Origin: Alphaproteobacteria bacterium | GTDB taxonomy: Bacteria > Pseudomonadota > Alphaproteobacteria > CADEGL01 | Direction of reading: 5' to 3' | NCBI GenBank assembly: GCA_050180485.1 | Contig: JBFXED010000021.1 | Span: forward strand, 245-64,244 | Length of the DNA: 64,000 bases | Part shown: one piece after another, positions 55,684-64,000 of the stretch | Layout of the letters: each line of letters opens with the position of its first letter | Numbering within the stretch: position 1 is the stretch's first letter | The notes under the pieces: model-generated | Told to the model about the DNA's origin: nothing | The model's input: the letters and a program-made list of their open reading frames with translations, nothing else | The model's database searches: none | Made by a program: the position numbers and the translations under genes

Positions 55684-57669
55684 ATGGAACTTTCGCGCCA
55701 CCGGGACGAAATGGTTCGCCATCAGATCGCGAGCCGCGGCGTGCGTTCCCCTCTCGTGCTCGACGCGATGCGAACCGTTCGGCGCGAGGCGTTTCTGCCG
55801 GAACGCCTGCGCCAGTTCGCCTACGAGGACTCGCCGCTTCCGATCGACGCCGAACAGACGATCTCGCAACCCTACATCGTCGCGCTCATGGTCGACGCGT
55901 TGGACCTCCAGGGCGGCGAGACCGTACTCGAGATCGGCACGGGATCGGGCTACGCGGCGGCCGTCCTGGCCGAAATCGCGGGCGAGGTCTACACGGTCGA
56001 ACGGATCGCCCAGCTCGCCGAGCGCGCAGCCAGCGCGCTGACCGACCAGGGTTACGACAACGTCCATGTCCGGCATGCGGACGGAACCAAGGGTTGGCCG
56101 GAGCATGCGCCCTATGACGCGATCGTGGTGGCGGCCGGCGGCCCCGAGGTTCCCAAGCCGCTCCAGCGGCAGTTGAAGATCGGCGGGCGTCTGGTCATCC
56201 CGATCGGCACCGATCCCCGCGCGCAGGAGCTGGTGCGCGTCACGCGCCTGTCGGAGGACGAGTTCCGGCGCGAAGATCTGGCCGATGTCCGCTTCGTGCC
56301 TCTGATCGGCCAGGAAGGCTGGGCGCCCGAGGAAATCGCTCCGGCGCGGCCACCCCGCGCGCGCCCGGCCGAGACATCCCTGGCGGACGCCATTGCGCGC
56401 GCCTGCGAGCCGTTCGAATCGCTTGAGAAAGCCAAGCTCGCGCCGCTTTTGCGCCGCGTCGGCCAAGCCAAGGTGGCGCTGCTCGGCGAAGCGACGCACG
56501 GGACGTCGGAGTTCTACCGGATGCGCGCGCGCATCTCGCAGGAACTCATCGCCGAAAGGAACTTTCGCTTCGTCGCGATCGAGGGCGACTGGCCCGATGT
56601 CGCGCGCATCGACCATTATGTGCGCCACTTCGAATACCCGCCGTCCGAATGGACGGCCTTTTCCCGCTTCCCCACCTGGATGTGGCGGAACGCCGAGACC
56701 CGTGCCTTCGTCGATTGGTTGCGCGCCTTCAACGCCGGCCGGCCGCCCGAACGGCGGGTGGGCATTTACGGACTCGACCTCTACAGCCTGTTCACATCGA
56801 TCCGCGCGGTGCTCGAATATCTCGACCGCGTCGATCCGGATTCAGCACGTATCGCGCGCACGCGCTACGGCTGTCTCACCCCCTGGCAGTCCGATCCCGC
56901 GAGTTACGGCCACGCCGCGATCGCGGGACACTACCGGACCTGCGAACGCGAGGTCGTGCGGACGTTGGAGGATTTGCTGCAAAAGCGGCAAGCCTATGTC
57001 CGGCGCGACGGCGAGCGCTTCATGGACGCGGTCCAGAACGCCAAGCTGATCGCCAACGCCGAGCATTATTACCGCACCATGTATTACGGCTCGCGCGAAT
57101 CGTGGAATTTGCGCGACACGCACATGTTCGAGACCTTGAAGGCGCTGCTCGAATTCCACGGTCAGGACGCCAAGGCCGTGGTGTGGGCCCATAACTCCCA
57201 CGTCGGCGATTCGGCGGCGACCGAGATGGCGGCGCGCGGCGAGTTCAACGTCGGGCACCTCTGCCGCGAGGCATTCGGAAGGGACGCTTACACCATCGGC
57301 TTCGGCACCCATTCCGGCACGGTGGCGGCGGCCACCGATTGGGACGGGCCGATGCATGTGAAGACTGTCCTGCCTTCGCTCGCGCGTAGCTATGAGCATC
57401 TCTGCCACGAATCGCAGGAGGAGAATTTCCTGCTGCCGCTGCGCGACGCCGCACCGGCCGATCTACGCCAGGGCCTCTCGGCGCCGCGCCTCGAACGCGC
57501 CATCGGGGTGATCTATCGGCCCGAATCGGAACTCGCCAGTCACTATTTCCAAGCGGTCCTGCCGCAGCAGTTCGACGAGTATATCTGGTTCGACCGCACC
57601 CATGCCGTCACACCCTTGACCACAAGGGAGCTGCAGGACCTCCCGGATACCTACCCGTTCGGCCTCTAG
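55684..57669 (+). CDS. pcm: Protein-L-isoaspartate O-methyltransferase fused to erythromycin-esterase-like domain
   Basis: QTISQPYIV, VLEIGTGSGY, APYDAIVV; then LLGEATHGTSEFY, EGDWPD, WAHNSHVGD, LERAIGVIY. Confidence 0.92.
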   Translation: MELSRHRDEMVRHQIASRGVRSPLVLDAMRTVRREAFLPERLRQFAYEDSPLPIDAEQTISQPYIVALMVDALDLQGGETVLEIGTGSGYAAAVLAEIAGEVYTVERIAQLAERAASALTDQGYDNVHVRHADGTKGWPEHAPYDAIVVAAGGPEVPKPLQRQLKIGGRLVIPIGTDPRAQELVRVTRLSEDEFRREDLADVRFVPLIGQEGWAPEEIAPARPPRARPAETSLADAIARACEPFESLEKAKLAPLLRRVGQAKVALLGEATHGTSEFYRMRARISQELIAERNFRFVAIEGDWPDVARIDHYVRHFEYPPSEWTAFSRFPTWMWRNAETRAFVDWLRAFNAGRPPERRVGIYGLDLYSLFTSIRAVLEYLDRVDPDSARIARTRYGCLTPWQSDPASYGHAAIAGHYRTCEREVVRTLEDLLQKRQAYVRRDGERFMDAVQNAKLIANAEHYYRTMYYGSRESWNLRDTHMFETLKALLEFHGQDAKAVVWAHNSHVGDSAATEMAARGEFNVGHLCREAFGRDAYTIGFGTHSGTVAAATDWDGPMHVKTVLPSLARSYEHLCHESQEENFLLPLRDAAPADLRQGLSAPRLERAIGVIYRPESELASHYFQAVLPQQFDEYIWFDRTHAVTPLTTRELQDLPDTYPFGL

Positions 57670-58125: not shown

Positions 58126-59427
58126 CTAGCGGCTCTGCCAGCGGTCGGCCAAGCCGTACCACTTCATGACATAGGGCATGAACCAGTTGCCGCCCGTGTG
58201 GCCCGGCACGGTCGGGAAGTTGCGGTCGGCGAAAATCGTTTTCGCTTCGGATGTCTTGAGAATGCGCGCGGCGGCCTTGCGCCCCAGATAGGTGCCCATG
58301 GGCAGGCCTGCGAAGCAGTAGCCGCCCGCGAAGTGGATGCCCTCGTGGGTCACAAGATGTGGCCACAGGTTGAAGGTGCCCGCGCAGCGCCCGGTCCAGG
58401 AATGCGTGATCTTCAACTTCGCGATCTCTGACACGATGGCGGCCGCATCGGCGTGAAGCTGCGCGCCCTTCTTGCGTGGCGTGCTGGGCTTAGTGCCCGT
58501 GCGCCAGAGGAAAAGGATGCGCGTGCCGTCGGGCGAGCGGCGCAGCGAGATAATGTCGTGGACGTGATCCAGATAGGTGCGGTCAGTCGGCAGCAGCTTC
58601 TGCATCAGCGCCGGGTCCAGCGGCTCGGTCGCGATCATGTAAGCGTCGAAGGGAATCAGGCGCCGCTGCAGCCACGGCCACAGATTGCCGGTATAGCCGT
58701 TGGTTGCGACCAGCACGTCCTTCGCGCGCGTGGGGCCCTGCGCCGTCGCCACGTCGAACCCGTCGCCGTCGCGGCGCAGGCCCGTGACCGGCGTGCCGCC
58801 GATCAGCGTGACGCCCGCCGAGCGCGCGCGGTCCAAAAGACCTTTGTGATAGAGGCCGGGATGGATCGCGGCCAGGCTGGGGATGACGGCGCCACCGCAA
58901 TAAAGATCACTGGAGATTTCGTTCCGAATCTCGGACTTGGGCACCATGTGGAATTCGGTGCCCAGGTGCTTGCGCCGCCGCTCGAACTCGTCGGCCAGGT
59001 CTTCGTACTGGCGCTTTGCCTTGGTCAGGATCAGGCGGCCGCACAGCTTGAAGCCGCAATCGATCTGTTCGTTCTGCACGCGCTCGGCGACCGAATCGAA
59101 CGCCGCCTTCATCTCGCGATAGACGGCTATGGCGTAATCGTCGCCCCGGCTCAATTGCAGGTCGCGGAAACTGTGCTTGAGCGTCTGGCCGACATAGCCC
59201 GCGTTGCGCGTGGATGCGCCGTGGCCCAGATCCTCGGCGTCCAGCACGACGACCTTGCGGCCCGCGCGCGCCAAGTCGATGGCGGCATTCAGTCCCGTGA
59301 AGCCCGAGCCCACGATGGCCACGTCGACGCTTTTCGGCGGCGCCTCGGGCACGGCCGTCATGCGCGGCGCGGCCTCCCACCAATAGGGCGTGTCCTTGAA
59401 ACCGGGCGCGAAAATGTCCGCGCTCAT
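58126..59427 (-). CDS. DAO-family FAD oxidoreductase (PuuB/OrdL-like)
   Basis: PYWW, DVAIVGSGFTGL.AA, GASTRNAG, ATNGY, MIATEPL, HSWTG. Confidence 0.9.
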   Translation of the reverse strand: MSADIFAPGFKDTPYWWEAAPRMTAVPEAPPKSVDVAIVGSGFTGLNAAIDLARAGRKVVVLDAEDLGHGASTRNAGYVGQTLKHSFRDLQLSRGDDYAIAVYREMKAAFDSVAERVQNEQIDCGFKLCGRLILTKAKRQYEDLADEFERRRKHLGTEFHMVPKSEIRNEISSDLYCGGAVIPSLAAIHPGLYHKGLLDRARSAGVTLIGGTPVTGLRRDGDGFDVATAQGPTRAKDVLVATNGYTGNLWPWLQRRLIPFDAYMIATEPLDPALMQKLLPTDRTYLDHVHDIISLRRSPDGTRILFLWRTGTKPSTPRKKGAQLHADAAAIVSEIAKLKITHSWTGRCAGTFNLWPHLVTHEGIHFAGGYCFAGLPMGTYLGRKAAARILKTSEAKTIFADRNFPTVPGHTGGNWFMPYVMKWYGLADRWQSR

Positions 59428-59539
59428 ACCGGGCCGCGATCCATCGGGCATCGAAGTCGCTCCTAAAAAACCAATAGTGAACTAGCACAATGCGCGTCAA
59501 AATTCCTGGGATGGATGGGACGGGGCTGCGAATCTATCC

Positions 59540-60823
59540 ATGCCGCACAGAATTAGGAACACTCTGGCTTGCCTCCTGATCGCTACCGTATGGGCCGGCG
59601 AAGCGAAGCCACAATATCGCCTGCCTCCGTTTCCGCAGCCTATCCCCACAGAACTGTTGGAACCGGATATTCCTCTGCCGTTCAAAGAGGGAACCGAAAC
59701 CATCCAGGTGGGAGCTGGAAATCGCCTGAAGGTGATATCGCTCGCTGGCCCAATGATCCCAGATCGGGGACGTGCGTACTGGGTAAATAACGACACCATT
59801 CTCTTCGTAGGCTACGGTCCGGCCGAATTCCCCGAGCAAAGTGGACTGCTCGAATTGCCGACCAAAGATCAGCGTCCTTCCCAAAGCAACCTTTACGTTT
59901 GGAAAATCGGGCACTCGCTCGTTAAATCGATTCCCGCAATATCCATTTTGTGTCACGGCATTTCTAAAAATATGACCGTTGCAAACGTAAACGTGAAAAT
60001 GGATGGCCAGCTACATACCTATAGTATTAGCGCCAACAAACTGTCTGATGGTATTCGGCAAATATCCAATATAGACGGTTGGATTGACCGTTTTTCATGC
60101 ACGAACTATGAGCGGCTGAAAAAACGAGCACCCCATCTCGAATCGTCAACCCAAAATGGCCACCCCGTTTGGTTTTATCTAGCATTCTTCGACTTGTACC
60201 TCGAGGCCCCGAGACGTGCCGTGTCGATCGAATATAAGGGCACCGGATGGGTAGCGCCCCGAGTTTCTGATCTTCGTCTCATCGATCCTAATTCCAACAA
60301 CGTGACTATTCTGCCCATACCCGACGTGGGTATCGAAGCCCATGTCGGTTCAACCGGCGGTATTAACTATTCTCCGCACGACCGCTCTTACTTGCTTTGG
60401 GACGCGCGAGCACCGGGTCGCGCGATCATGACTCCAGACGACCGTGAGGAGGCTCCAGAGGTCGCATGGAAAGCGGCGGGGTGTCGGCCGGGTTGGACGC
60501 TTGATGCCGAACGCCGAGTAACAGAGCACTGCTTACCGGCAGATCTCCCACTCAACGTCTTTACCCAAACCAACGCCGGCATCATCGGGTTTGTCCGCTG
60601 GCCGGGAGGTTTCAAAATGTCTGCTGATGGTGCGGTCTATAGAATTGCGGATAGTAAAGGCACGCGCTTGCTCGACCAGGTTCTCACATCCACTCGACTC
60701 GAAGCGCCGCTGGCGTCACCAGACGGGTGCCGCGTCGCGGCGACTCTATCGCCATCGGACAAGCCCACCGCTCGTCCCCGGCTCACAATCCTCGATTTCT
60801 GTGCTGCTTCGGACGGAAAGTAG
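59540..60823 (+). CDS. Hypothetical exported protein, low GC
   Basis: 427-aa open frame with signal-like N-terminus, several Cys, C-terminal ASPDGCRVA; no family recognised. Confidence 0.6.
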   Translation: MPHRIRNTLACLLIATVWAGEAKPQYRLPPFPQPIPTELLEPDIPLPFKEGTETIQVGAGNRLKVISLAGPMIPDRGRAYWVNNDTILFVGYGPAEFPEQSGLLELPTKDQRPSQSNLYVWKIGHSLVKSIPAISILCHGISKNMTVANVNVKMDGQLHTYSISANKLSDGIRQISNIDGWIDRFSCTNYERLKKRAPHLESSTQNGHPVWFYLAFFDLYLEAPRRAVSIEYKGTGWVAPRVSDLRLIDPNSNNVTILPIPDVGIEAHVGSTGGINYSPHDRSYLLWDARAPGRAIMTPDDREEAPEVAWKAAGCRPGWTLDAERRVTEHCLPADLPLNVFTQTNAGIIGFVRWPGGFKMSADGAVYRIADSKGTRLLDQVLTSTRLEAPLASPDGCRVAATLSPSDKPTARPRLTILDFCAASDGK

Positions 60824-60857
60824 GACCCAGAGACGGCGTACCTGGAATAGCTTTGGC

Positions 60858-60990
60858 CGGTGGCTGGTGCGCCAGGATTAGAACCTGGGGTCGCGGGACT
60901 AAAACCCGCTGCCTTACCACTTGGCCACGCCCCAATACCGGCCGTCCGTCGCGGCACGCAAAGTAGGTGGAAGCGCCGGGAGCCGCCCTA
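60858..60990. repeat. Direct repeat copy 1 (tRNA plus promoter region); partner at 63394-63530
   Basis: Aligns from CGGTGGCTGG through the tRNA, ATACCGGCCGTCCGTCGCGG and TAGGTGGAAGCGCC to CCGCCCTA. Confidence 0.92.
60861..60934 (-). tRNA. tRNA-Gln-derived gene with UUA anticodon (ochre suppressor-like or pseudogene)
   Basis: TGGGGCGTGGCCAAGTGGTAAGGCAGCGGG-TTTTAGT-CCCGCGACCCCAGGTTCTAATCCTGGCGCACCAGCCA; 70/74 identical to 63397-63470. Confidence 0.85.
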
Positions 60991-61155
60991 TCCGAGCTTA
61001 CTTTTCGCAAGCCGCCCCCTTGACGGCCCACGGGCGCGCCACCATTTCCCTGCGCAACCCGGATCCGGGCCCCTCTGGCAGGCAGGTCGCTGCTTGCGAT
61101 GTCGGATCCTTCACCTGCTCGAGCGCCGACGGGCGCGGAAGCATCTGGAGGCACC

Positions 61156-62151
61156 ATGGAGTGGCTCGCCACGGCGCTCGGCGCCGATTTTCTGGGTAAA
61201 CCCGCTTGGCTCTGGCTTGTCTTCGCCGGCATCGTCGGCGCGCTCTTGACGTTCGACCTGGGCGTGCTCCACCGCAAGCAGCGCGAAATCGAAGTCCGCG
61301 AAAGCCTGTGGCTCAGCGCCGGATATATCGCCATCGCTCTGGTATTCGGCGCCTGGATTTGGTCGTCGATGGGCAGCGAAAGCGGCATGGCCTATCTCAC
61401 CGGCTTCTTCATCGAGAAGTCGCTGGCGCTCGACAATGTCTTCGTCATCTCGTTGATCTTCGCGTATTTCGCGATCCCCCGGCAGTATCAACACCGCGTG
61501 CTGTTCTGGGGCATCCTGGGCGTCATCGTGCTGCGCGCGGTGATGATCGGCCTGGGCGCCGCGATCGTTTCGGAATTCGCCTGGGTGCTCTACATCTTCG
61601 GCGCGTTTCTGCTGTTCACCGGCGTCAAGATGCTGGTCCTGGCCGACGCCATGCCGAAGGTGGGCGAGAACCCGCTTCTGCGCTTTCTCAAGCACCGCAT
61701 GAAGGTGACCGACCAGCTTCACGGCCAACGTTTTCTGGTTCGCTTGCCGGTTCCCGGTACTACGCGGAAGGCCACCTACGCCACGCCGCTTCTGCTCGCG
61801 CTGATGCTGATCGAGGTGGCCGACCTGGTCTTCGCGGTCGATTCGGTGCCCGCCATCTTCGCGATCACCACCGACGCGTACATCGTCTACACCTCGAACA
61901 TCTTCGCCATCCTCGGCCTGCGCGCTCTGTACTTCGCGCTGGCGGCTATGGTGCACCGGTTCCACTACCTCAAATACGCGCTGTCCATCGTGCTGATCTT
62001 CATCGGACTGAAGATCTTCTGGAATCAGCTTTTCGGGAAGCTCGACCCCACGATCTCGCTGGGCGTGACGTTCGCGCTTCTCGCGGGCGGCGTGCTGTAT
62101 TCGCTGTGGAAGACGCGCGCGTCCCCGGCGTCCGCGACGAAGGAGGTCTGA
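61156..62151 (+). CDS. terC: TerC/Alx-family metal-homeostasis membrane protein
   Basis: YLTGFFIEKSLALDNVFV, QHRVLFWGILG..VLR, E.ADLVFAVDSVPAIFAIT.D..IVYTSNIFAILGLRALYF; GGAGG RBS. Confidence 0.93.
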   Translation: MEWLATALGADFLGKPAWLWLVFAGIVGALLTFDLGVLHRKQREIEVRESLWLSAGYIAIALVFGAWIWSSMGSESGMAYLTGFFIEKSLALDNVFVISLIFAYFAIPRQYQHRVLFWGILGVIVLRAVMIGLGAAIVSEFAWVLYIFGAFLLFTGVKMLVLADAMPKVGENPLLRFLKHRMKVTDQLHGQRFLVRLPVPGTTRKATYATPLLLALMLIEVADLVFAVDSVPAIFAITTDAYIVYTSNIFAILGLRALYFALAAMVHRFHYLKYALSIVLIFIGLKIFWNQLFGKLDPTISLGVTFALLAGGVLYSLWKTRASPASATKEV

Positions 62152-62154
62152 GCC

Positions 62155-62469
62155 GTGGCCGCACTGGAGAAGACGATCTGGTTGGTGACTGCGGCGGCGA
62201 CCGCGTTCTGGAGCCTCGTGTGCGCCGCAGGCTACGGTCTGGTCGCGCTGTTCGGCGGCATCGTGCAAGAGCATGTCCAAGGCTTGCATTTGCATCCGGC
62301 GATCGATCCCTGGATCGCCGCGGCCTTTGGCGTCACCCAGGATCTGGGTCCGGTATTACTGGTCACGTTGTGGGTGGGCGGCGTCGTGCTGATCCTGGGG
62401 CTCGCCGCGCTGACCGCCGGCATGAAGCGCGGCGTGCTACGGTCCGACCGCCGCAGGCGCTTCCGTTAG
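62155..62469 (+). CDS. Small hypothetical membrane protein (2 TM)
   Basis: AGGAGG RBS within terC end; two hydrophobic segments, Arg-rich C-terminus; tightly packed between terC and channel gene. Confidence 0.65.
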   Translation: MAALEKTIWLVTAAATAFWSLVCAAGYGLVALFGGIVQEHVQGLHLHPAIDPWIAAAFGVTQDLGPVLLVTLWVGGVVLILGLAALTAGMKRGVLRSDRRRRFR

Positions 62470-62485
62470 CGGAGGAGTCGCGGCA

Positions 62486-63304
62486 ATGACATCAGTGACC
62501 TTCATCCGCGGGCGCGTGCGAGCGCAGCTCGAACAAAGCCGGGTGCAGAACGCCCTGATTGCGCTGATCGTTCTGAATGCGATCGTATTCGGCATCGAGA
62601 CTTCGCCCAGCGCGATGGCCGAGATCGGTCCGGCATTGCGTCTGGCGGACCGTTTGATCCTCGCGGTGTTCGTGATCGAGATCGGCCTGCGGTTGTTCGC
62701 TTATGGTCCGCGCTTTTTCCGCGACCCGTGGAGCGTCTTCGACTTCGCCGTCGTGGCGTTGGCCCTACTGCCCGCGACAGGCAGCCTCAGCGCCTTGCGC
62801 GCGCTGCGGGTCTTGCGCGTGCTGCGCCTCATCAGCCTGGTGCCCCAATTCCGCATGGTGGTCTCGGCTCTGCTCGGCGCCGTGCCCGGTATCGCCGCCA
62901 TCGCCGGCATCCTCTCGCTTTTGCTCTACGTATCGGCCGTGATCGCGACCAAGCTGTTCGCGGCATCGGCGCCCGACCTGTTCGGCACATTGGGACAGAC
63001 GCTGTTTACCCTGTTCCAGGTCATGACGCTGGAAGGCTGGGCGGACGTCGCGCGCCGGCTCATGGACGATTACCCGGCGGCCTGGCTGTTCTTCGTGCCC
63101 TTCATCCTGGTCACCACCTTCACCATGTTGAACCTCTTCATCGCCATCATCGTGGGCGCGATGGACCGCGAGCGGCAACGCGCCGATCCGGTGTCGGAAC
63201 GTCTGGACCGGCTGAGCCGTCAGATCGAGCGGCTGGAAGGTAAAATCGCGTCTGCGTCCAAGGCGCAGCCGCTTGTCACGTCCGGCTCCACGCGCCTGGA
63301 ATGA
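62486..63304 (+). CDS. Voltage-gated cation channel, BacNav-like 6TM family
   Basis: FFRDPWSVFDF (S3), RALRVLRVLRLIS (S4), TLFQVMTLEGWAD filter, NLFIAIIV.AM (S6), C-terminal coiled coil. Confidence 0.92.
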   Translation: MTSVTFIRGRVRAQLEQSRVQNALIALIVLNAIVFGIETSPSAMAEIGPALRLADRLILAVFVIEIGLRLFAYGPRFFRDPWSVFDFAVVALALLPATGSLSALRALRVLRVLRLISLVPQFRMVVSALLGAVPGIAAIAGILSLLLYVSAVIATKLFAASAPDLFGTLGQTLFTLFQVMTLEGWADVARRLMDDYPAAWLFFVPFILVTTFTMLNLFIAIIVGAMDRERQRADPVSERLDRLSRQIERLEGKIASASKAQPLVTSGSTRLE

Positions 63305-63396
63305 CGCAAGTTCCTCGCGCGGGAATGCGCGGGATGGCCGACCGCCCGGAAAGCGGCATCAGGAACCGGTAAAGAAGTAGACAGCGATCACGACGG

Positions 63397-63470
63397 TGGC
63401 TGGGGCGCCAGGATTCGAACCTGGGATCGCGGGACCAAAACCCGCTGCCTTACCACTTGGCCACGCCCCA
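63397..63470 (-). tRNA. tRNA-Gln (UUG)
   Basis: TGGGGCG...GCGGG-TTTTGGT-CCCGC GATC CCAGG-TTCGAAT-CCTGG CGCCCCA G CCA; full cloverleaf, U1-A72, encoded CCA. Confidence 0.96.
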
Positions 63471-63493
63471 ATACCGGCCGTCCGTCGCGGCGC

Positions 63494-63522
63494 AAATTAG
63501 GTGGAAGCGCCCGCCCCCGCAA
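63494..63522 (-). promoter_or_regulatory. Sigma70-like promoter of tRNA-Gln
   Basis: TTGCGG (63522-63517), 17-nt spacer, TAATTT (63499-63494), GC-rich discriminator. Confidence 0.6.
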
Positions 63523-63549
63523 CCGCCCTAGGCAGCCATTTTACGGTAG

Positions 63550-63618
63550 CTCACCCTTCGACGAGCTCAGGGTGAGGACTTCTATATGGACCTCGTCCTG
63601 AGCCCGTCGAAGGACGAG
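63550..63618. repeat. REP-like inverted pair (family B)
   Basis: CTCACCCTTCGACGAGCTCAGGGTGAGG ... CCTCGTCCTGAGCCCGTCGAAGGACGAG. Confidence 0.82.
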
Positions 63619-63631
63619 CAAGCGAAAGGTC

Positions 63632-64000
63632 TCACGCGGCTTTCGCGACGTTGGTCAGATACCAGGCATAGGCATCGGCCAGGCCCTGGTCCAGGCCGGT
63701 CTTGGCCTTCCAACCGAGGGCGTTGATGCGCGAGACGTCGAGCAGCTTGCGCGGCGTGCCGTCGGGCTTGGACGCGTCGAAATCGAGCCCGCCCTTGAAG
63801 CCGACCGCGCGGCAGACCTTCTCGGCCAACTCGCGGATGGTGACGTCCTCGCCCGTGCCGACGTTGATCGTCCGCTCGTCCGAGTAGTTCACCATCAGGT
63901 GAACCAGCGCGTCGGCCAGATCGTCGACATGCAAGAACTCGCGCTTCGGCGCGCCTGAGCCCCAGACCTCGATCGATTTGGCGCCCGACTGCTTCGCCGC
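63632..64000 (-). CDS. fcl: GDP-L-fucose synthase (5' truncated by window)
   Basis: EVWGSGAPKREFLHVDDLADA, INVGTGEDVTIRELA, FDASKPDGTPRKLLDVS...LGW. Confidence 0.93.
   Translation of the reverse strand, partial: AAKQSGAKSIEVWGSGAPKREFLHVDDLADALVHLMVNYSDERTINVGTGEDVTIRELAEKVCRAVGFKGGLDFDASKPDGTPRKLLDVSRINALGWKAKTGLDQGLADAYAWYLTNVAKAA

Follow-up and report, generated by a model that had tools for sequence, protein, structure and literature searches.

A tRNA-Gln copy with a UUA anticodon, a probable decaying duplicate at a tRNA-Gln insertion locus

The window, the whole stretch of 64,000 nucleotides that was analysed, contains a tRNA-Gln-derived gene with the anticodon UUA. This gene is probably a young, redundant and decaying duplicate of a single tRNA-Gln(UUG) gene. 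We infer that it is poorly transcribed, folded and charged, so that its part in decoding would be small or nil. The window corresponds to contig C21 of a draft genome (3.9 Mb, 83 contigs) that is 97% complete with 3.9% contamination.

The UUA copy and its intact counterpart

The two tRNA genes and their putative promoter regions are located as follows.

60861..60934, minus strand: tRNA-Gln-derived gene with anticodon UUA, U57 and a G4·A69 mismatch (ARAGORN tRNA-Stop(tta); Rfam tRNA)
60935..60988, minus strand: duplicated leader of the UUA copy with a degraded putative promoter and a 2-nt insertion (sequence)
63397..63470, minus strand: intact tRNA-Gln(UUG), the working copy (ARAGORN tRNA-Gln(ttg); Rfam), with a 5′ flank matching the one in the genus relatives
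63494..63522, minus strand: probable promoter of the UUG copy, TTGCGG-N17-TAATTT (conservation in relatives)

ARAGORN predicts two tRNA genes in the window, tRNA-Stop(tta) and tRNA-Gln(ttg), both 74 nt long. They differ at sequence positions 35, 45, 55 and 67, corresponding to window positions 60900, 60890, 60880 and 60868. These differences are the anticodon change G36A, a variable-loop substitution, the T-loop change G57U and the acceptor change C69A, which places A69 opposite G4. The 5′ half, the U1-A72 pair, the anticodon stem and the encoded CCA are the same in both copies. A preliminary description of this DNA had reported a 74-nt UUA tRNA, four differences from the UUG copy and an intact 5′ half with U1-A72, anticodon stem and CCA; ARAGORN and direct comparison reproduce its coordinates, and all four sites match exactly. 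The differences are all real, but the one in the variable loop is not specific to the copy.

The UUA copy is 95% identical to the UUG copy and 96% identical to the tRNA-Gln of two same-genus genomes, G001 and G003. In a search of the own genome the likeness of the two copies is far above chance (E = 3.5e-27), and they are the only two occurrences of the sequence. Against the Rfam tRNA model (RF00005, gathering score 29) the UUA copy scores 53.9 bits, with a match spanning model positions 1-71, and the UUG copy 63.6 bits. The minimum free energy is -28.5 kcal/mol for the UUA copy versus -33.2 kcal/mol for the UUG copy. The centroid structure of the UUA copy leaves the acceptor stem open at its outer four positions; in the folding model, this stem is weakened.

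A purine at position 57 is a general tRNA feature. The UUA copy lacks it, and it also lacks a fully paired acceptor stem of 7 bp. Its anticodon is neither of the two glutamine anticodons, UUG or CUG, and is complementary to UAA. Other traits of tRNA-Gln, the U1-A72 pair and a D-stem of 3 bp, are present in the sequence and in the ARAGORN drawing.

The copy is redundant in its genome. Two intact paralogues are available, the tRNA-Gln(UUG) at 63397-63470 and a tRNA-Gln(CUG) on contig C65, so that both the UUG and the CUG isoacceptor are present. A third candidate reported by ARAGORN, a 91-nt "tRNA-Gln(ttg)" on contig C6, was judged false, with a poor and irregular fold in the drawing. ARAGORN also lists a tRNA-Ile(tat) in the draft, no tRNA-Tyr or tRNA-Trp, and a permuted (two-piece) tmRNA at C26:18233-18574. 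Permuted tmRNA is associated with alphaproteobacteria, and the tmRNA found here is consistent with such an origin. Elsewhere in the window, a 661-aa ORF at 55684-57669 on the plus strand combines protein-L-isoaspartate O-methyltransferase (PCMT) and erythromycin-esterase-family domains (Pfam).

Insertion and duplication at the tRNA-Gln locus

Both tRNA genes lie in the arms of a direct repeat, and a further segment adjoins the UUA copy on its 3′ side.

58126-59451: FAD oxidoreductase gene
59452..60857, plus strand: low-GC segment on the 3′ side of the UUA copy (GC 48-54% versus 64.7% for the genome)
59540-60823, plus strand: 427-aa ORF whose N-terminus is hydrophobic; no match to Pfam at E ≤ 1
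60858..60986: left arm of the direct repeat (repeat search: 98 nt with 4 mismatches and 30 nt at 83%)
60987..63393, plus strand: inserted segment between the arms with terC RNA motif, TerC ORF and Ion_trans ORF (Rfam, Pfam)
61057-61114, plus strand: terC RNA motif (RF03067; Rfam 59.6 bits)
within 61099-62151, plus strand: ORF for a TerC-family membrane protein (Pfam TerC, 4.7e-52)
62486-63304, plus strand: ORF for an Ion_trans channel of the voltage-gated type (Pfam Ion_trans, 9.8e-44)
63394..63520: right arm of the direct repeat (repeat search)

The repeat of about 129 nt comprises the tRNA, a leader of about 52 nt and a trailer of 3 nt. Positions 60858-60955 pair with 63394-63491 over 98 nt with four mismatches, all of them within the tRNA. 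After a 2-nt indel, 60957-60986 pairs with 63491-63520 at 83%. The block of 2.46 kb between the tRNA genes is host-like in GC content and codon bias (GC3 0.84-0.85), and Pfam detects no integrase or other mobility gene in it. A terminator-like hairpin is located in this block at 61172-61186.

The arrangement in relatives allows the locus before insertion to be reconstructed. G001 and G003 have a single tRNA-Gln no more than about 30 nt after the FAD oxidoreductase gene; the upstream side of this tRNA-Gln corresponds to window 63380-64000. In the third same-genus genome, G002, the oxidoreductase gene is followed by a homologue of 59452-60860 (78% identity) and then by the tRNA-Gln, at which the contig ends. 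By this comparison, a single ancestral locus has been split in two: one half now adjoins the UUA copy on its 3′ side, and the other adjoins the UUG copy on its 5′ side. The 2.46-kb block was inserted here, and tRNA and leader were duplicated. Window 60988-63379 has no DNA match in G001-G003, and a search with 60935-63396 gives 0 matches in these genomes at E ≤ 1e-20. In the rest of the order, with 12 genomes searched, only distant terC or channel matches are found. Sequence comparison thus shows the repeat and the insertion, and it shows that the UUA copy is restricted to this genome among those searched.

We propose that insertion of the 2.46-kb block at the tRNA-Gln locus would have duplicated about 129 nt. 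A possible route is a single crossover that integrates a circular molecule with its own copy of the tRNA region, though another mechanism may have been at work. The copy that remained beside the original upstream gene would have kept the full promoter and stayed intact. The copy beside the original downstream flank would have lost its -35 box at the repeat boundary. Freed from selection, this UUA copy may then have gathered changes from G/C to A/T, one of which would by chance have turned UUG into UUA. Site-specific integration of an island was also considered, with all differences lying in the anticodon or 3′ of it, and was set aside with the whole tRNA and leader repeated and an integrase absent.

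The other end of the repeat shows a further irregularity. Directly 3′ of the UUA copy, six consecutive bases are unlike the flank that the UUG copy has in common with the genus relatives. Beyond these six bases, homology resumes after a length difference of a few bases (60858-60870 compared with 63380-63396, G001 and G002). From the alignment, the change at the repeat end looks like a small rearrangement and not like point changes.

The low-GC segment of 1.4 kb on this side is found in G002 at 78% DNA identity and is absent from G001 and G003. By its composition it appears foreign, and it represents a second acquisition at the same tRNA-Gln locus. Counting the terC-channel block, this locus has therefore taken up DNA at least twice.

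Among the 40 relatives searched, 30 gave a match and 10 did not; 29 loci were examined, with the match in G038 left out. One tRNA-Gln(UUG) is present in 28 of these 29 loci, and the remaining one, in G002, is cut by the contig end and reads UUG, G57 and C69 in the part that is present. No second copy and no UUA copy is found in the 29 loci, so retention of the UUA anticodon among them is not seen. We also scanned collections that may omit the genome of the window itself. A longer pattern of the UUA anticodon arm gives 0 matches in 185,579 species genomes. A shorter one gives 5 matches, three in Brevibacterium, one in a Syntrophomonas MAG and one in an Acidobacteriota MAG; this is about the number expected by chance by a rough estimate, and ARAGORN recognises no tRNA at any of the five. 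In metagenome contigs, 0 matches each are obtained for a pattern of the UUA 3′ end with its flank and for the UUA anticodon-arm pattern.

Signs of decay and alternative readings

G36, G57 and C69 are conserved without exception in the relatives (28 of 28); all three are retained in the UUG copy and changed in the UUA copy. The C in the variable loop of the UUA copy is also present in G001, G002 and G003, at a site that varies between relatives (C in 6, T in 22). Judged from this distribution, the variable-loop difference is an ordinary ancestral polymorphism and not a lesion. Therefore, only three changes are specific to the UUA copy, and all three (G36A, G57U and C69A) run from G/C to A/T. 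This is the direction expected at unconstrained sites in a GC-rich genome. The derived changes amount to 3 in the 74 nt of the tRNA body; the duplicated leader carries 1 substitution and one 2-nt insertion in 43 nt, a density similar to that of the tRNA body. The score of 53.9 bits is lower than that of all 20 tRNA-Gln of relatives that were scored (57.3-67.8 bits) and lies 7.9 bits under the nearest orthologues (61.8 bits). The UUA copy combines lineage specificity, changes at invariant sites and a lowered model score, as a decaying duplicate does.

The sequence in front of the gene is also changed. The motif TTGCGG-N17-TA(A/G)(T/C)TT precedes the UUG copy as well as the tRNA-Gln of each family relative for which upstream sequence is available, six in all (G001, G003, G004, G006, G008 and G009). 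A scan with a strict promoter consensus finds no promoter in front of either copy, so it is from their conservation among relatives that we infer the TTGCGG and TAATTT boxes to form the promoter. In the leader of the UUA copy, GGGCGG (60983-60988) stands where the -35 box TTGCGG is expected and TACTTT (60960-60965) replaces TAATTT, because the repeat decays exactly there.

Several observations speak against decay. The cloverleaf is kept and scores well above the Rfam threshold, and U1-A72, the discriminator base and CCA are retained. The -10-like TACTTT remains, and read-through transcription would be possible. A formal rate test would need more changes than 3 versus 0 (one-sided p about 0.125). 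In addition, all four differences are located in the 3′ half; such clustering is not expected from neutral decay and has a chance of about 0.08.

Charging of the UUA copy would have to follow the indirect route. In the assembly, which is 97% complete, no GlnRS matches over the family cut-off, while GatB and two GluRS genes are present; the route through GluRS and GatCAB that the preliminary description gave for most alphaproteobacteria therefore applies to this genome by gene content. In Helicobacter pylori, GluRS2 is specific for tRNA-Gln, and the anticodon-loop changes G36C, G37A and U38C have little or no effect on charging (PMC2777447). By analogy with this tolerance, A36 might be accepted in charging and alone need not block glutamylation. 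Single changes of the acceptor pairs, save the 3rd and the 6th, yield poor substrates for this enzyme (PMC2777447). By the same analogy, the G4·A69 mismatch, at pair 4, would fall in the acceptor region that carries identity.

We looked for a footprint of UAA reading in ORFs of at least 100 codons with GC3 of at least 0.80 and GC3 minus GC2 of at least 0.30, a filter that misses about a third of the likely genes. The 2446 filtered ORFs end in TGA (1317), TAG (688) and TAA (441), so all three stops are in use. In 400 kb of G003, which has no copy, 303 ORFs end in TGA (167), TAG (82) and TAA (54). The TAA share is 18.0% (441/2446) compared with 17.8% (54/303) in G003 (Fisher p = 1.0). Past the stop, a coding-like frame stays open for 80 codons in 29 of 435 cases for TAA, 44 of 683 for TAG and 38 of 1309 for TGA. 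Within 120 nt, 21 of the 29 frames after TAA offer a start codon in frame together with a Shine-Dalgarno-like word, and in 7 of the other 8 an ATG is seen by eye within about 30 nt. Nearly all 29 have an in-frame start within about 80 nt, which is the pattern of adjacent genes. Compared with TAG, there is no excess of in-frame TAA in this crude GC3-filtered set of about 2446 ORFs, and the scan gives no signal of sense decoding at TAA. Weak suppression could occur without a footprint of this kind.

The variants are supported by metagenome contigs. In three runs from a single study, X1-X3, 92-96% of the words sampled from 59400-63600 are present; the run search lists no RNA dataset that carries this region. 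In each of X1-X3, positions 59413-60930 are spanned by a Logan contig of 1518 nt that shows 0 differences; its depths are 58, 9 and 24, respectively, similar to the flanking contigs (58.3 compared with 54-63 in X1). All four variant sites lie on this one contig, continuous with the unique 3′ flank. With 0 differences in the contigs of three runs, the variants are therefore not an artefact of one assembler. These data are contigs and not raw reads, so minor alleles are possible, and X1-X3 may include the source sample of the genome and therefore do not count as independent support. The contig ends at 60930 and the next one starts at 60926; this break is expected, since the 55 nt of 60901-60955 are identical in both copies and unique 31-mers end there. 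In a run of a different study at low depth, X4, pieces of the terC-channel block are found with few differences; the depth is zero in six bins spanning 59547-60575 and 0.9-2.3 in two bins up to 60869.

A second arrangement of the locus is also seen in these samples. Contigs of X1 and X3 join the end of the oxidoreductase gene (59451) straight to the tRNA-Gln (63397/63383), without both inserts. At the joint 59451 to 63383, seen in one contig of X1, 20 letters stand between the oxidoreductase side and the tRNA side, and they match a 3′ flank of the G001 type. These joints, which skip the inserts, suggest that a relative with an uninserted locus is present alongside, with roughly one tenth to one third of the depth.

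These data bear on the possibility that the UUA copy is a strain chimera or an assembly or sequencing error, in an organism with only one normal tRNA-Gln(UUG). The fragmentation and contamination of the draft would favour such an error, as would the uninserted relative in the same metagenome (joint 59451 to 63397); the shared 55 nt break k-mer contigs, which leaves the link between 3′ half and leader unproven from contigs alone. An error is nevertheless extremely unlikely, given one contig that carries all four sites and the unique 3′ flank, free of differences and at single-copy depth in three runs, and given that a full-length UUA gene results whichever leader joins the 3′ half. A genuine copy could also have been kept for a role outside decoding, either as a recombination site for gain or loss of the terC-channel block or as a signal, for processing or as a boundary, beside the divergent terC leader. 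The 129-nt direct repeat around the block has this copy in one of its arms, the divergently oriented terC RNA motif lies 122 nt away, and tRNA genes are common insertion sites of islands. We hold such a role to be very unlikely, since the block contains no mobility gene, no joint between the repeat arms that would indicate excision is among the 15 joints listed (41 more lie outside the list), and the role leaves the particular changes unexplained.

The preliminary description had offered two readings, a decaying pseudogene and a weak or conditional ochre suppressor, with a leaning towards impaired function; the direct repeat around the inserted block and the ancestral state of the variable-loop difference had escaped it. 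The relatives, the promoter, the invariant sites and the missing TAA trace favour the pseudogene; the suppressor is unlikely. Such a suppressor would be weakly transcribed, receive glutamate from one of the two GluRS enzymes and be amidated by GatCAB; a small share of UAA codons, and of UAG codons through wobble, would then be read as glutamine, with the promoter and structural lesions keeping the level tolerable. Such a function could be read from the UUA anticodon in a recognisable tRNA-Gln body with U1-A72 and CCA intact at 53.9 bits, from G36A being the change in the classic E. coli suppressors supB and supE, and from the gene set of two GluRS and GatB with no GlnRS match over the cut-off. 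The indifference of H. pylori GluRS2 to anticodon-loop changes (PMC2777447) points the same way, as do the 0.3% of standard-code bacterial genomes for which suppressor tRNA genes are predicted (PMC13092985). Against it, the copy is absent from every relative locus examined and the conserved -35 box of the inferred promoter is lost. U57 and G4·A69 affect sites that are invariant in 28 of 28 relatives, and the H. pylori enzyme reads identity in the acceptor stem. TAA and TAG together end 46% of the filtered ORFs with no shift relative to the genus relative without the copy, and in-frame TAA is not in excess. The full version of this reading, a glutamine-inserting UAA/UAG suppressor in a bacterium with only GluRS-GatCAB, derived from its sole tRNA-Gln(UUG) and dosed low by a crippled promoter, acceptor stem and T-loop, is quite unlikely.

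Comparison with known systems

With decay of a redundant duplicate as the preferred reading, the gene should be annotated as a probable tRNA pseudogene and not as "tRNA-Sup", and its presence should not be read as evidence of an altered genetic code. The redundant arm would drift by G/C-to-A/T changes, and a stop-reading anticodon would arise by accident.

The E. coli nonsense suppressors supB and supE derive from the UUG and the CUG isoacceptor of tRNA-Gln, respectively, by a G36-to-A change. The UUA copy has the same anticodon change, here giving UUA, which would pair with UAA and, by wobble, with UAG. In contrast to the UUA copy, supB and supE were selected in the laboratory and are otherwise intact, expressed and charged by GlnRS. 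The UUA copy carries U57 and G4·A69, has no -35 box and would need GluRS and GatCAB.

A survey of 42,109 bacterial genomes predicts suppressor tRNA genes in 0.3% of those with the standard code, with tRNA-Sup UUA as one class and with pseudogene-flagged genes excluded (PMC13092985). Such predicted genes are therefore known, if rare. Our case is alike in that a stop-reading anticodon is found in a bacterium that plainly uses all three stops; it differs in that the survey, as far as its accessible part extends, did not cover the present lineage or an origin by duplication (PMC13092985). The accessible part of a further source, PMC7918605, holds nothing specific on suppressor tRNA genes. Should the suppressor reading hold, this copy would add a rare case of an ochre suppressor that occurs in nature and is charged via the indirect pathway.

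Islands at tRNA genes can be flanked by direct repeats of tRNA sequence. Unlike in these islands, the repeat described here comprises the whole tRNA with its leader and not just the 3′ part, and the segment is 2.46 kb long, has host GC and lacks an integrase. It would represent a clean, small example of how an insertion at a tRNA gene can duplicate the entire gene. The likeness to tRNA islands is that extra DNA is located at a tRNA gene between repeats of the tRNA, at a locus that also took up the low-GC segment shared with G002.
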